DNA of 32,000 bases from Desulfotalea psychrophila LSv54. GTDB taxonomy: Bacteria; Desulfobacterota; Desulfobulbia; Desulfobulbales; Desulfocapsaceae. Under the pieces are notes generated by a model. The model made no database searches and was not told where the DNA came from. It was given only the letters and a program-made list of their open reading frames with translations. Both the position numbers and the translations under genes were made by a program. Location of the stretch: contig NC_006138.1 in NCBI RefSeq assembly GCF_000025945.1, positions 3,210,001-3,242,000 of the forward strand, read 5' to 3'. Positions within the stretch are counted from its first letter, which is position 1, and every line of letters begins with the position of its first letter. Positions 9,217 through 19,513 of this stretch are shown one piece after another.

Positions 9217-9251
9217 AGCAGCTGTAAGATCTCAGCTATCAGCTGCTTTTT
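9217..9251. terminator. Rho-independent terminator after paralog 2 (A-run / stem / T-run, potentially bidirectional)
   Basis: AAAAAAG-AGCAGCTG (9217-9224) ... CAGCTGCT (9240-9247)-TTTT. The stem is a perfect 8 bp. Confidence 0.75.
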
Positions 9252-9277
9252 AACCTAAGCTCCCGTGAGGGTTAAAC
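9217..9277 (+). repeat. Copy b of the AGCT-hairpin + tail element
   Basis: AGCAGCTGTAAGATCTCAGCTATCAGCTGCT followed by CTTTTTAACCTAAGCTCCCGTGAGGGTTAAAC. Confidence 0.6.
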
Positions 9278-9514
9278 CTTCGGTTTGAATTGTTTCGATT
9301 TTACTCATTCATTGGCCAATATTCATTTTCTTTTACTCAAAAGAAAGGAGCCCTGCCACTACGGTCTTCGGCAGTGCGCCTCAAGTCCCACGAGAGGTTA
9401 AGATGGCTCGCTCAAACAAGTCAAACTCCTCTCGCGCAAATTTTCCCGCTGCTCAGCTCCGGACCAATGGAGATCGCCCAACCAAATTCAGTGCCATTAG
9501 TACATGGGCTTCCC

Positions 9515-9934: not shown

Positions 9935-10005
9935 AAGGAGAGTACACCAAGCTGTAAGCTATAAGCTGTCAGCTTCTTTCCAATCCACCCTCCCGTGAAG
10001 GAGCG
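9913..10005 (+). repeat. Copies d and c of the tail motif flanking an AGCT hairpin
   Basis: GGTTTCAATCCACGCTCCCGTAAAGGAGAG (9913-9942), then AAGCTGTAAGCTATAAGCTGTCAGCTT (9949-9975), then CTTCTTTCCAATCCACCCTCCCGTGAAGGAGCG (9973-10005). Confidence 0.6.
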
Positions 10006-15851: not shown

Positions 15852-17252
15852 CTATTTTTGTAACTTTTCAAGCATGGTAAGAAGCAGTTCATTAAAGGCC
15901 TGTTGCGCTGCTTCACCTTGATCTATCTTCTGCTTTGTTGTGCAGTTAAAGAATTTCTTACAGAGTGTAAGCTCTGCCCTTGACCACTCTTGGGTGAAAT
16001 TATGCTTTGCCAGTTCTGGTAAATTGCTTTCAGATGACAGAGAGTCCCGTCTGCCATGGGCCCAGTTGACAATCTGTTGGTAAAAAAGAAAAGAACGATT
16101 GAGCAGAATAAAGAGAAGCCTAATGTCTTTAGCAGGACCTATTGAGATCGTTTCATTGGCTATCCGTATACCCTTTATGGTGGAACTTTTTTCTATTGCC
16201 TTTTGTCCGGTGAAGAGAGCAGCCACGGCCCCACCTGCACTAGCCGCTGCGGTAAAAATCCCAAAGGTGAGTCCGGCAAAGGCAAGGTCAATTCCAGCGC
16301 CTAAACCTGCACCGCTGAGACCACCCAGGAGCATACATTGCTTTTTGCTTAGCCCTAATAACTGCCAATTTTTCGCAGTGAAAAGATTATCGCTGAGTAA
16401 AGGGTTAGGCGGGAGAGTGTAGTTGTAAATATTATGCTTATAAAGATCACGCAATCTGCTCTGCGCAGTTTTCTCCATCTGCTCTAACTGCTTTTTATAT
16501 CGATCAAAGAGATGGCGACGCGCAACATCTTCTCCTTCGTTTCCTCCGATCTTACCTTCTAAAGAGAAGCTCAGAGATTCTCCAAGCATCGTACTGATAA
16601 GTTCAGCTGCGCGCTGGGTGCGATCCTGCCAGTTTTGCTTAAAGGCAAGGAGTGCTCGCTGTAGCGGTTCCTGCCAGTCCTGTTCAATGGACTTAAGTGC
16701 TTCAAAGAGATGAATCCGTTCTCTGTATCCGGCATGGTGTGCATTGAACACCCTGTATGAGTTGAAAGTTTTTCTGAACTCATCTTTCCATATTTCCAGG
16801 TACTGACGGTTATCTTTGCAGTTGATTACCGCCATTCGTGGTCTCCCTGTTAAGCGTAAAATTTCAATTTCGCTCAGATCAACATTTTTTATTGGTCTTG
16901 ATCCATCCACAACATAGATTATACCAGCACCCCGTAAAAGTGGCTTGAGCAACTCAATGTCATGTTTCAGTTCGGGAATATCCTGTAATGATCTTACCAG
17001 AGTTTTGAGGTTTGCGGCCGGCGAGCCAGTACACTGTTTGAGCTCATAAAGGATTCTATTAGGGTTTTGAAATCCCGGTGTATCAGTGAAACGAAGAATA
17101 TCCTGATCGTCAATATTGATGACAAATGATTGGCAGAGAGTCGTCTCTCCGGGGCTGCTACTAATGCGTACAGAATCATCTTCTGCCAGAGTTGATAGAA
17201 CCGATGACTTCCCCTCGTTGGGATGTCCCATGATGGCAAATTCAGGAATCAT
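15852..17252 (-). CDS. P-loop GTPase with C-terminal DUF3482-like domain containing a Gly/Ala-rich hydrophobic segment
   Basis: G1 GHPNEGKS (aa 9-16), G3 DTPG (aa 57-60) and a G4-like NCKD (aa 144-147). The hydrophobic stretch LLGGLSGAGLGAGIDLAFAGLTFGIFTAAASAGGAVAALFTG spans about aa 308-349. The start ATG overlaps the upstream stop (ATGA at 17249-17252). The DUF3482 name is from memory. Confidence 0.8.
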   Translation of the reverse strand: MIPEFAIMGHPNEGKSSVLSTLAEDDSVRISSSPGETTLCQSFVINIDDQDILRFTDTPGFQNPNRILYELKQCTGSPAANLKTLVRSLQDIPELKHDIELLKPLLRGAGIIYVVDGSRPIKNVDLSEIEILRLTGRPRMAVINCKDNRQYLEIWKDEFRKTFNSYRVFNAHHAGYRERIHLFEALKSIEQDWQEPLQRALLAFKQNWQDRTQRAAELISTMLGESLSFSLEGKIGGNEGEDVARRHLFDRYKKQLEQMEKTAQSRLRDLYKHNIYNYTLPPNPLLSDNLFTAKNWQLLGLSKKQCMLLGGLSGAGLGAGIDLAFAGLTFGIFTAAASAGGAVAALFTGQKAIEKSSTIKGIRIANETISIGPAKDIRLLFILLNRSFLFYQQIVNWAHGRRDSLSSESNLPELAKHNFTQEWSRAELTLCKKFFNCTTKQKIDQGEAAQQAFNELLLTMLEKLQK

Positions 17253-18796
17253 TGAATTTCACCTAATGTAATTGGGAAAAGTTGGATAAAACTATCACCA
17301 AGTCCGGCGATCTTTTGTTGCCAGAGCAGGGTCTCCGTCTCTTTTGGACTGACCAGTGAACCATCTGCCAAACTATTAACAAGTAGTACCTCAACTGTGG
17401 TTTGGGTTTTTTCTCTTATTGTTTGCACATAGGAGAGGAACTCGGTGAGGGGAACCATATTAGCCTCCATTACAATGAAGATAGGACAGTGCTGCTTGCT
17501 ATTCTGCAGAGCAAGTTGGTCGACAATCTCTTGGTCAGAAGCGTAGTCGGCCATAAAGGTGATCAACCGTTCGGCTCTATATCCATGCTGGAGGAGCAAT
17601 GTCTTGAGTATATTATCATGGCGGGCATTTCTGATGTCTGCTGCAATCAGTACTGTAACTGTTGCCTGGTGGCCAGTTTGCGATTGCTCGTCGCCTGTAT
17701 GAGAGAACCGACGATCCTTATCTGTTGCATCGGCACCGATGGTTTGTCCCGGCTCTTTCTCACTTTTTTGCTCATAGATGGGGGTGCGCATCCGGTGAAA
17801 GAGTTTTTGGTATTCTGCTCTTCGCGTGGTGGATGACTGAAGACTCTTTCTCTCTTGTAAGAGGGCAATTAAAAAGAGAAGTATCCGGGGCAGAAGACCA
17901 TAGGTCAAGAGACAGAGGATAAGAAACGGCCACCAGGATGAGAGGTTTTGATTTGCTAAGTGATAGATACCATCTTTTAGAATAATCCGACTACCGGCAA
18001 TTTGTTCAAGGGTTGGGTTGGCGTGGGCGAGAAGGCTGCTCCAGTTCCAGGGGGCAGAGACAATTTGCACCATGGTCTGGATATATTCAGTGCTCAGTCT
18101 CAAAGTAGATTGCCAGCCAAAAGCGATATCTGAGGTGATAATTTTATACAGAGCGCCAAAAAGAAGGCCGATGTTGAGGCTTATGCTAGCTGACTGATGT
18201 ATACGATTAAAGAGAGAGGAGAGGTCAACCGAATAGCCTTTATTTTGTTTGAGAATCCCCAGTGCATGTTCATAGTTTAATCGTTTCTCTGCCGGAAATT
18301 TTGCGATTAATGGCCCTGCCAAAAACGAGGTGAAGAGGGCAAGGCAATATCGTATCAGTGGCGGTGACAGTGACTTCTGCCCTTGGCCAAGCGAGCGAAT
18401 GAGCCTGACGAGAAGGGCAAGCGTTATGGTGCATAGCTGGCTGCCGATGAAGATAATTATAAATGAAAATATATTGATAGGTGTAGTGCCGGAATAATAT
18501 AAAAAAGTAGTAGTGGCAGAAATACCAACGAAGAAACTGATGACCAAGAGGATGAGATGGATGCGACTGAGAGCCTTTGAGACAATGGTACCGATGCTTT
18601 CTGTATCGATACATTGCTTGCCTCGTTGAGCGGCTAACCATATTGAGAGCAGTCTTGCTGAATCTTCTTGTCCATCTTTTGGCACATATTCCAGGAAAAG
18701 AGCTCGATCCCGCTTGTGGAGTTCCTGCCAGTTTTTTTGCCGGTCAAGATGGAAAAAAAAAGCAGCATCTATTATGTCTCGGTATTTGGGATTCAT
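17249..18796 (-). CDS. Polytopic membrane protein, probable DUF2868 family, partner of the downstream GTPase
   Basis: 515-aa ORF with a soluble N-terminal ~70 aa and several hydrophobic helices in the middle (LILLVISFFVGISATTTFLY, IFSFIIIFIGSQLCTITLALLV, WWPFLILCLLTYGLLPRILLFLIALL). The C-terminal ~160 aa are soluble. The family name is recalled, not verified. Confidence 0.7.
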   Translation of the reverse strand: MNPKYRDIIDAAFFFHLDRQKNWQELHKRDRALFLEYVPKDGQEDSARLLSIWLAAQRGKQCIDTESIGTIVSKALSRIHLILLVISFFVGISATTTFLYYSGTTPINIFSFIIIFIGSQLCTITLALLVRLIRSLGQGQKSLSPPLIRYCLALFTSFLAGPLIAKFPAEKRLNYEHALGILKQNKGYSVDLSSLFNRIHQSASISLNIGLLFGALYKIITSDIAFGWQSTLRLSTEYIQTMVQIVSAPWNWSSLLAHANPTLEQIAGSRIILKDGIYHLANQNLSSWWPFLILCLLTYGLLPRILLFLIALLQERKSLQSSTTRRAEYQKLFHRMRTPIYEQKSEKEPGQTIGADATDKDRRFSHTGDEQSQTGHQATVTVLIAADIRNARHDNILKTLLLQHGYRAERLITFMADYASDQEIVDQLALQNSKQHCPIFIVMEANMVPLTEFLSYVQTIREKTQTTVEVLLVNSLADGSLVSPKETETLLWQQKIAGLGDSFIQLFPITLGEIQ

Positions 18797-19003
18797 AGCC
18801 TATTTGTACCAGAAAAAGAACGAAGCTTCTATGCTGATTGTAGGAGTAGGACAGTATAATGCTTAAAGCTTCGGATAAAGTCGTTTTAGCCTTACTGGTA
18901 CATCATCAATTCAAAATGACAAAAGCAATTAAGCACTGACAAGCAAAGAGGAGATAGACAGTGTTGCAACGATTTTACAGCGGAATAGAGCTTCGTGCGG
19001 TCG

Positions 19004-19297
19004 CCCTCTTGCAGAAGCTCGCAAAGCCCTAAATCAATAAAATGACCCTTGCAGGGATCTGCAAAGACCATTTTATTGCTCCGACAGCCCTTGCATGAAC
19101 CCGCAAAGACCATTTTATTGCTCCGATAGCCCTTGCACGAACCTGCAAAGACTGTTTTCTTGAGTAGACAACCCTTGCACGAACCTGCAAAGACTGTTTT
19201 CTTGAGTAGACAGCTCTTGCACGAACCCGCAAAGGCTACTTTAGTGCTGAGATAGCGTTTGCAGAGACCTGTAAGGATAATTTTATATCTAGGTCAG
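19004..19297 (+). repeat. Non-coding tandem array 2: about 7 units with an exact 42-bp period
   Basis: Units phased at 19004, 19046, 19088, 19130, 19172, 19214 and 19256, with a degenerate unit from 19298. Units at 19130 and 19172 differ only at the last base (CCCTTGCACGAACCTGCAAAGACTGTTTTCTTGAGTAGACAR). Each unit carries TTGCA-N6-TGCAA or TTGC-N8-GCAA. Confidence 0.9.
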
Positions 19298-19513
19298 GCT
19301 TTGCACGCCTATCTGCTTGCTGTCGTGTCTGAGTTTTCTGCATAAAAACCTTCTATTTGCAGTGCAGTTCACAATACCTTGTAAGCATGAAACCAATGGC
19401 AGCCAACGGCTTAGACGATATTCCAAGGGATTAGGACTTCGTGCGGTCCCAATTATTAGTAACAGAATTTGAGCTATAAAATTTTACAGAAAACTTCAGA
19501 AGGAAAGCTGACA

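Follow-up and report, generated by a model that had tools for sequence, protein, structure and literature searches.

A 42-bp-period tandem array of Desulfotalea psychrophila LSv54 as a candidate copy of a small modular interspersed repeat

Introduction

In the chromosome of Desulfotalea psychrophila LSv54, a gap of 718 bp between two divergent genes contains a tandem array of palindromic units with a period of 42 bp, bracketed by a direct repeat. This locus raises the question of what such an array is: a platform for a DNA-binding protein, a non-coding RNA gene, a minisatellite that arose in place, a coding sequence, or one copy of an element that is dispersed in the genome. The window referred to below is the whole stretch of DNA that was analysed, namely 32,000 nucleotides of contig NC_006138.1 (positions 3,210,001 to 3,242,000); positions are those of the window unless they are preceded by C1. 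An earlier note, made from the letters of the window alone, had described this array (array 2) together with another one of the same period (array 1). The gap is delimited by the following genes:

17249-18796, minus strand: DUF2868 membrane-protein gene, the first of a DUF2868-GTPase pair
19514 (ATG), plus strand: start of a GNAT acetyltransferase gene

Structure of the array in the window

The TRF program reported a 42-bp period at 19046-19248, with 4.8 copies, 83% matches and 0% indels, and a repeat search gave start-to-start unit spacings of 42, 42, 42 and 42. Six units are in exact 42-bp register (19046, 19088, 19130, 19172, 19214 and 19256). The earlier note had assigned a seventh unit, at 19004, to the same strict register, but the palindrome of that unit lies 2 nt later, so that the first palindrome-to-palindrome spacing is 40 and not 42. 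Likewise, the motif TTGCA-N6-TGCAA or TTGC-N8-GCAA, which had been attributed to every unit, is present in six of these seven units, whereas the unit at 19256 is degenerate (TTGC-N8-GTAA). Two adjacent units (19130 and 19172) do differ by a single nucleotide, as had been noticed. The array and its surroundings comprise the following features:

18842-18907, plus strand: fragment of another small dispersed repeat, with five other genomic matches at 75-85% identity
18989-19322, minus strand: copy B3 of an interspersed element (family B), homologous over its full length to copies B1 and B2, with ends set by three-way alignments; the order on the minus strand is head (19322), 42-bp modules, tail (18989)
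19003-19045, minus strand: tail unit, offset by 2 nt, with a linker inverted relative to the internal modules (unit table)
19035-19078, no strand: large palindrome with 20-nt arms, 85% complementary, a 4-nt loop, and an A tract and a T tract flanking it (repeat search)
19046-19297, minus strand: six 42-bp modules in exact register (TRF, repeat search, unit table and hairpin energies)
19130-19213, minus strand: pair of modules 1 nt apart, which represents the extra module of B3 relative to B1 and B2 (unit comparison and alignments)
19256-19322, minus strand: degenerate head units, which pair with the tail in RNAalifold on the three copies
19323-19414, no strand: sequence of 92-93 bp that separates the head from the right direct-repeat copy, with no other match in the genome
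19452-19480, minus strand: sigma-70-like promoter match (TTTATA-17-AATAAT) aimed into the array, by consensus match only

On the minus strand, each module consists of a hairpin with a 10-bp stem (CUUUGC-N8-GCAAGG core) followed by an A-rich linker (..GCAAUAAAAUGG..). The near identity of the module pair at 19130-19213 indicates, as far as sequence comparison can tell, a recent local duplication, and the palindrome at 19035-19078 has the shape of a putative bidirectional terminator. The gap is also a repeat cluster, since it holds the dispersed-repeat fragment at 18842-18907. The fragment is akin to the sequence found ahead of the 'X' repeat that adjoins array 1.

Three collinear copies in the genome

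The complete genome (3.66 Mb in total, i.e. a chromosome of 3.52 Mb and two plasmids) was searched. Genome-wide, TRF gave 42-, 84- or 126-bp rows at eleven chromosomal loci, which fall into two sequence families, A and B. Family B, with the core CTTTGC-N8-GCAAGG, is represented by three chromosomal copies of ~300-330 bp each, namely B3 in the window and the following two, which lie 2.7 and 0.7 Mb from it:

C1:500747-501044, plus strand: copy B1, homologous to B3 over its whole length
C1:2482016-2482320, plus strand: copy B2, homologous to B3 over its whole length

Other genomic occurrences, the absence of which would have spoken against the importance that the earlier note gave to the array, therefore exist in the form of two more copies of the element. 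The three copies are ~78% identical and collinear, with common head units, a common order of unit subtypes and a common tail; they align from head to tail with 5-7 units, of which B3 has one extra. In the tails of B1 and B2 the last-unit spacings are shortened, to 32 and 38 bp, and the linker is inverted. Neither BLAST nor nhmmer detected any further copy, and nhmmer with a unit profile found no solo unit elsewhere in the genome. A CRISPR array was considered and rejected, the linkers of ~22 nt being conserved between units and between loci.

The collinearity of the three copies implies that the element spread as a whole piece of ~300 bp and did not grow site by site. The number of modules changed locally afterwards, slippage having added the extra unit of B3. 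The reading that we prefer, with a probability of roughly 0.55, is that array 2 is one copy of a small interspersed repeat of the BOX/MIRU kind, which does not code and is restricted to one species.

An ordinary local minisatellite (VNTR), produced by slippage in place and devoid of relatives or further structure, would explain a tandem, degenerate and non-coding array with decaying end units, and the recent duplication with a 1-nt difference shows that slippage does occur. However, the same order of head, subtypes and tail is found at two other loci, family A is present at eight loci, and collinear copies cannot result from independent origins in place; this explanation is thus very improbable.

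As 42 bp correspond to 14 codons, a protein with 14-residue repeats (frame K-M/V-x-F-A-G-S-C-K-G-C-x-x-N, minus strand) was also considered. One frame is indeed open through the array in B1, B2 and B3, and GGAG stands 7 nt ahead of an ATG within the unit. However, further reading frames are likewise open, which is natural where the unit is free of stop codons, B3 has no start codon at its head, replacements such as Cys-to-Arg occur freely between units, and substitutions between copies counted by codon phase (7/9/6, 8/13/17 and 10/13/16) display no third-position excess that is consistent in all pairs. A coding function is scarcely credible.

Predicted hairpins and strand asymmetry

An internal unit of family B is predicted to fold, on the minus strand of the window (the plus strand in B1 and B2), into a 10-bp stem closed by a 6-nt GGUUCA/G loop, with unit hairpin energies of -8 to -20 kcal/mol on the minus strand versus -3 to -10 kcal/mol on the plus strand. 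When 13 core units with 10 stem pairs each were tabulated, the 130 cells comprised 94 Watson-Crick pairs, 31 G·T, 1 A·C and 4 others, an excess of G·T that was counted on units related by descent and consequently stands for few independent events. All but one of the polymorphic stem positions alternate between Watson-Crick and G·T, and the remaining one shows G-C, G·T and A-T. The loop bases are conserved about as much as the stems. This pattern of the stems fits a constraint on a single-stranded hairpin of that strand, or alternatively deamination of the non-template strand; either cause would point to transcription of the hairpin strand.

The whole element also folds asymmetrically, with -131 kcal/mol (z -5.9) for the hairpin strand versus -106 kcal/mol (z -3.4) for the opposite strand. 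In the consensus fold of the three copies (RNAalifold), columns 26-78 pair with columns 271-321, that is, head with tail over ~50 nt. The head and the tail of family B may then be regarded as an imperfect terminal inverted repeat of ~50 nt, and the pairing of end modules that characterizes BOX-type repeats is found, imperfectly, in this family. Furthermore, the tails of B1, B2 and B3 have terminator-like sites on the hairpin strand (minus strand 19059-19044 in B3), and the head of B2 has such a site on the other strand.

Some of these predictions would also suit a stand-alone structured non-coding RNA gene, transcribed from the minus strand between the promoter-like match at ~19452-19480 and the tail terminators at ~19040. 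Such a transcript would be 'beads on a string', with repeated GGUUCA-loop hairpins that would titrate an RNA-binding protein as a CsrB/RsmZ-type sponge does. The hairpins are strand-specific and vary by wobble only, each copy has terminator-like hairpins at the 3' end of that strand, forward-strand fold z-scores reach -5.6 to -5.9, and a promoter-like match lies upstream in B3 and in B1. These matches, however, occur at chance frequency (near B3, 1 sigma-70-like site was found versus 1.6 expected, which taken by itself is no evidence). The three heads are preceded by unrelated sequences, and the element owns no conserved promoter. Conserved GGA-type motifs are absent from the loops and linkers, and the element was not found in the relatives searched, which is unusual for a regulatory RNA. 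In addition, Rfam 15 gave no match at gathering score in the window or at five other array loci, and in E-value mode no family appeared even at E<=5, apart from chance matches to generic, miRNA-type hairpins. An RNA sponge is therefore distinctly improbable.

Genomic context of the arrays

Seven of the eleven arrays of both families (two of three for family B alone, namely B1 and B2) are located in gaps between convergent genes, versus 15% of all intergenic gaps of the chromosome, both the gene contexts and this baseline being derived from crude ORF calls and not from annotation. The array neighbours are housekeeping genes or apparent gene fragments, and no gene family recurs beside the arrays at the 11 loci. 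In brief, B1 adjoins a short ORF for a HydF-like GTPase and B2 an ORF resembling the C-terminal part of adenosine deaminase, both named from their translations alone. The gaps that hold the arrays are mosaics of other small dispersed repeats.

The origin of replication is near 0.70 Mb and the terminus near 2.25 Mb; nine of the 11 arrays are in one orientation, which is not significant. An apparent co-orientation of the arrays with the upstream gene (9/11) was dropped, as it is automatic in convergent gaps.

The flanking direct repeat

The array was described in the earlier note as bracketed by a direct repeat of ~21 nt. The repeat is real and longer, and its two copies are as follows:

18969-19002, plus strand: left copy of the direct repeat, 34 nt long, of which the final 14 nt (18989-19002) are part of the element's tail and the other 20 nt are flank
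19415-19448, plus strand: right copy, with the exact 12-mer at its end, 93 bp past the head

The two copies share 27 of 34 positions at a spacing of 446, a score that was reached in none of 300 shuffles of the region (shuffle maximum 23). Within them, the exact 12-mer CTTCGTGCGGTC (at 18991 and 19437) has no third occurrence in the genome of 3.66 Mb. It is thus not a common genomic word, and none of 100 shuffles of the window gave two matches to it, in line with the suggestion that its recurrence is unlikely by chance. Nevertheless, the left copy is in part the tail of the element, and this tail end is kept in B2 (12 of 15 bases). Because the left copy overlaps the tail and the right copy is placed 93 bp past the head, the repeat is not a classical target-site duplication. 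The unique sequence enclosed along with the array, put at ~130 bp in the earlier note, is reduced to 93 bp once the degenerate head units (to 19322) are counted.

The flanks of all 11 arrays were screened for direct repeats. In B2 a match of 13 of 15 is at chance level, and B1 is truncated. Just one other array has a unique flanking repeat: this family-A array (C1:748318-748499) is flanked by copies that are spaced 474 bp apart and identical at 40 of 42 positions, and that can be extended to ~70 nt if indels are allowed. The 3' end of the adjoining formate-dehydrogenase-like gene forms the right copy. Two more arrays, array 1 among them, have copies of multi-copy repeats on both sides. Of each of the two unique repeats, one copy abuts the tail and the other is 50-93 nt from the head. 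Possible causes of such direct repeats are insertion with a long target duplication, recombination at a 12-bp core, and local duplication.

Distribution outside this genome

No interspecies occurrence of the element was found. Indeed, (i) DNA searches of 40 relatives, one of them from the same genus, matched neither family A nor family B, (ii) none of the 35 loci with the two-unit pattern in GTDB species genomes was a relative of family B, (iii) the family-B pattern gave 0 matches in IMG/VR, and (iv) it gave 2 matches in JGI metagenomes, both of which are plain bidirectional terminators beside a tRNA gene. About half of the 35 GTDB loci are unrelated arrays of 21/42 bp (in Bacteroidota, Planctomycetota and others), a proportion that is silent on how common such periods are because the pattern favours them. 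The same-genus genome lacks the repeat and the DUF2868 gene, has an M20 homologue that is only 47% identical, and shows no synteny; an exact-protein look-up of the GNAT neighbour gave no match on record. Both families look, by these sequence searches, private to Desulfotalea psychrophila, and a patchy occurrence such as that of family B is what selfish repeats typically show. For the Desulfobulbales, no earlier account of small interspersed repeats was found.

Comparison with known repeat systems

The BOX element of Streptococcus pneumoniae is built as boxA - boxB(n) - boxC and is accompanied by RUP and SPRITE repeats (Croucher et al. 2011, PMC3049150). Family B shows the same succession of head, variable tandem modules and tail, with paired end modules that enclose tandem modules of ~45 bp in BOX and 42 bp here. 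Both are non-coding (67-637 bp), predicted to form hairpins if transcribed, clustered and nested with small repeats, and confined to one species group; over-representation between convergent genes is also common to BOX and to the arrays (PMC3049150). The terminator-resembling end units of family B are SPRITE-like. The likeness is one of architecture, no sequence kinship being expected with a different phylum. Unlike BOX, family B displays no clear short target-site duplication and has no insertion sequence (IS) with matching ends, and its internal module is the palindrome itself. Copies of BOX number more than 100, versus 3 for family B and 8 for its sister family A, and the three copies of family B fall short of the tens to hundreds that are seen in BOX-type repeats.

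MIRUs are tandem repeats of 46-101 bp found at 41 loci of M. tuberculosis H37Rv (PMC3914561). Here too, related intergenic minisatellite arrays are scattered over the chromosome, with units in the 40-100-bp range (3 loci for family B, 8 for family A) and a unit number that varies from locus to locus, whereas the inverted-repeat frame of head and tail that distinguishes family B is lacking in MIRU. MIRUs have been described as located within operons and as having small reading frames that overlap. Unlike in that setting, the arrays of D. psychrophila are mostly between convergent genes, and coding is not favoured.

With REP/BIME (PMC3733652, PMC3116915), family B shares imperfect extragenic palindromes of ~20-35 bp that contain G·T positions and are often arrayed, and both are believed to function as RNA hairpins or terminators. 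However, the units of family B are in direct tandem and not alternating, never occur solo, and belong to an element with very few copies. The GTAG or CGTC tag at the palindrome was looked for: GTAG precedes 4 of 18 units, the others having ATGG, ACGG, ACAG or TTAG. No RAYT gene (Y1 transposase, PF01797) was matched in the complete genome, in contrast to the control genomes, which were matched. A REP element was therefore rejected, in view of the missing RAYT gene, conserved GTAG tag and solo copies. Similarly, the search for an IS with ends matching family B returned chance 13-14-mers only.

A period of 42 bp in two unrelated families

Family A, to which array 1 of the window belongs, has the core TATACA-N2-TGTATA and occurs at eight loci. 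Base-pair covariation within its units was looked for and rejected, since mutual information is dominated by unit subtypes and a compensatory look is limited to the pair 25-32. The best circular match between the consensus units of A and B is 18 of 42, a value reached by 34% of shuffles, and profile searches gave no cross-hits; homology between the two families was rejected on these two grounds. The 9 kb that separate arrays 1 and 2 had been taken in the earlier note as an argument for a common mechanism or binding factor. This distance is unremarkable, as a gap no larger arises in 27% of trials when eleven loci are placed at random. What stands of the proposal is the period of 42 bp common to unrelated families (8 loci for A, 3 for B), whereas the low match of their units and the want of a conserved neighbour gene do not favour it.

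A common factor is the essence of the main rival to the interspersed repeat, in which a putative dimeric protein binds the 16-bp palindrome TTGC-N8-GCAA. Sites repeated every 42 bp (four helical turns) would be displayed on one face of the DNA, where the protein would polymerise into a nucleoprotein platform; a paralogue or the same scaffold could occupy the TATACA-N2-TGTATA arrays, and the whole could serve as a centromere-like site, a silencer or a nucleoid landmark. In favour of this explanation, exactly the same period of 42 bp is found at the 3 loci of one family and at the 8 loci of another with no sequence relationship to it, most units stay in register free of indels, and both cores are palindromes of the kind that dimeric regulators bind. 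Moreover, the palindrome of family A makes a poor RNA hairpin and has no strand asymmetry (9 G·T versus 6 A·C cells). The architecture also recalls sopC of plasmid F, which consists of twelve 43-bp units with an inverted repeat in each, the arrays having likewise tandem units of ~42-43 bp with a short inverted repeat. The arrays differ from sopC in being chromosomal and dispersed (3 + 8 loci), with no adjacent partition or replication gene.

Several observations weigh against a phased array of binding sites. Neither an adjacent cognate Rep/Par gene nor a conserved partner gene of any kind was found at the 11 loci, and the contexts are varied and mostly between gene ends, not at promoters. Some units are off phase (40 bp in family A; 32 and 38 bp in the tails of family B; 40 bp for the first spacing of B3). 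The systematic G·T positions in the stems of family B would create unequal half-sites in duplex DNA, and its loop bases are about as conserved as the stems. Finally, the palindrome has no match among the known regulator motifs of D. psychrophila (PMC545781). We hold this explanation to be unlikely, though least so among the alternatives.

Apart from any one explanation for family B, it can be asked whether the same period of four helical turns in unrelated families reflects a constraint at the level of DNA and not a coincidence, which we regard as somewhat more doubtful again. Under such a constraint, a predicted host protein or pair of paralogues could polymerise on one face of the DNA, so that the 11 arrays would be nucleoprotein landmarks. 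Alternatively, and more speculatively, an integration or repair machinery with widely staggered cuts could set the length of the duplications; this would also account for the long unique repeats at B3 (34 nt) and at C1:748318-748499 (42 nt or more).

Proposed model and significance

In the preferred reading, a non-autonomous or fossil mobile or duplicative element would have been copied as a unit, its head and tail, as imperfect inverted copies, being arranged around four to six tandem 42-bp modules, the number of which would have been resized by slippage after copying. The element would persist where the harm is small, i.e. mostly in gaps between convergent genes, in repeat-rich gaps and downstream of genes. 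If transcribed, the hairpin strand would yield an RNA of successive hairpins, closed off by terminator-like ones, and this RNA could halt transcription arriving from either side or shield the 3' ends of upstream mRNAs; we infer this role from the way in which REP and BOX-type repeats are thought to act. No dedicated host function is needed to explain family B. Against a mobile repeat, three copies are very few, no target-site duplication is consistent across B1, B2 and B3, and neither a RAYT gene nor an IS with matching ends is available as transposase partner. The model also leaves unexplained why an unrelated family has the same period of 42 bp.

In summary, the element is best read as a BOX/MIRU-like modular interspersed repeat, a kind that is already known. 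If the main reading is true, a repeat of this kind would be added to the Desulfobulbales, and the 11 arrays would be natural VNTR markers for isolates of D. psychrophila, although of modest practical value. The arrays mark intergenic gaps at which the genome was rearranged, in some cases next to truncated genes. Of greater interest is why a unit of 42 bp is maintained in two families that are unrelated.

Dispersed repeats next to the 42-bp arrays

Array 1 of the window, which belongs to family A (42-bp arrays with a TATACA-N2-TGTATA core), immediately adjoins a copy of a dispersed repeat of ~180-230 bp, named X, which occurs at about 12 further loci in the genome and is also found close to two other family-A arrays. 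The conserved blocks of X are, in order, TATTCATTTTCTTTTACTCAAAAGAAA ... GGAGCCCTGCCACTACGG ... CCCACGAGAGTTTAAGA ... GCTGCTCAGCTCCGTGCCAATGGGGAT, and the repeat has no match in Rfam. Array 1 and its X repeat are together enclosed by two copies of another dispersed element, composed of an AGCT-rich hairpin and CTCCCGTGAGGG.

X repeat and hairpin element (C1, chromosome)
Window 9320-9498: X repeat adjoining array 1
C1:259319-259505, 942578-942738, 1310207-1310381, 1959386-1959604 and 2712741-2712908: example copies of X
Window 9220-9271 and 9950-10001: hairpin element, 40/52 identity

Another family-A array (C1:748318-748499) is enclosed by a unique direct repeat (C1:748137-748178 and C1:748611-748652) of 40/42 identity, which lengthens to ~70 nt if indels are allowed. 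The right copy corresponds to the final ~25 codons of a formate-dehydrogenase-like gene (748590-750203, minus strand); therefore, a duplicate of this gene's 3' end is present beyond the array. The intergenic stretch of ~2 kb that separates an ATP-synthase-epsilon-like gene from mutS (C1:941000-943000) is pieced together from six or more families of dispersed repeats, and it contains a 250-bp internal duplication and a further family-A array.

An additional dispersed tandem family, with a CGCCATTCCGCTACGCTTCACTGC-like unit of 24 bp, is present at C1:28267, 1448245, 1689781 and 2161074 and in the flanks of B2 (positions 1399-1474 of L002, the stretch around B2), a family-B array (42-bp period, CTTTGC-N8-GCAAGG core). 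It adjoins B2 and two family-A arrays, and AGCTGTCAGCT hairpins are often adjacent to its arrays. Two ORFs adjoin B2 and B1, the latter being another family-B array.

C1:501129-501728, minus strand: 199-aa ORF adjoining B1 (stretch L003)
C1:2481143-2481892, plus strand: 249-aa ORF adjoining B2 (stretch L002)

Judging their translations by eye, both look like gene fragments, the former a piece of a HydF-like GTPase and the latter resembling the C-terminal part of adenosine deaminase.

Other repeat arrays

Long 21-bp or 42-bp palindrome arrays, without sequence relation to family B, were observed in GTDB genomes on several contigs of Bacteroidota, Planctomycetota and Oscillospiraceae (L012, L017, L023, L028, L029, L032, L036 and L040), sometimes several per 8 kb and with at most 14 copies, the search pattern being biased toward the 21/42-bp periods of the arrays found. 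The beginning of the large plasmid (C2:565-687, 849-899, 1031-1156 and 1178-2005) carries dense iteron-like arrays of 21 bp and 24 bp and a 160-bp repeat, all unrelated to families A and B; this repeat-dense region is probably the replication or partition region of the plasmid.
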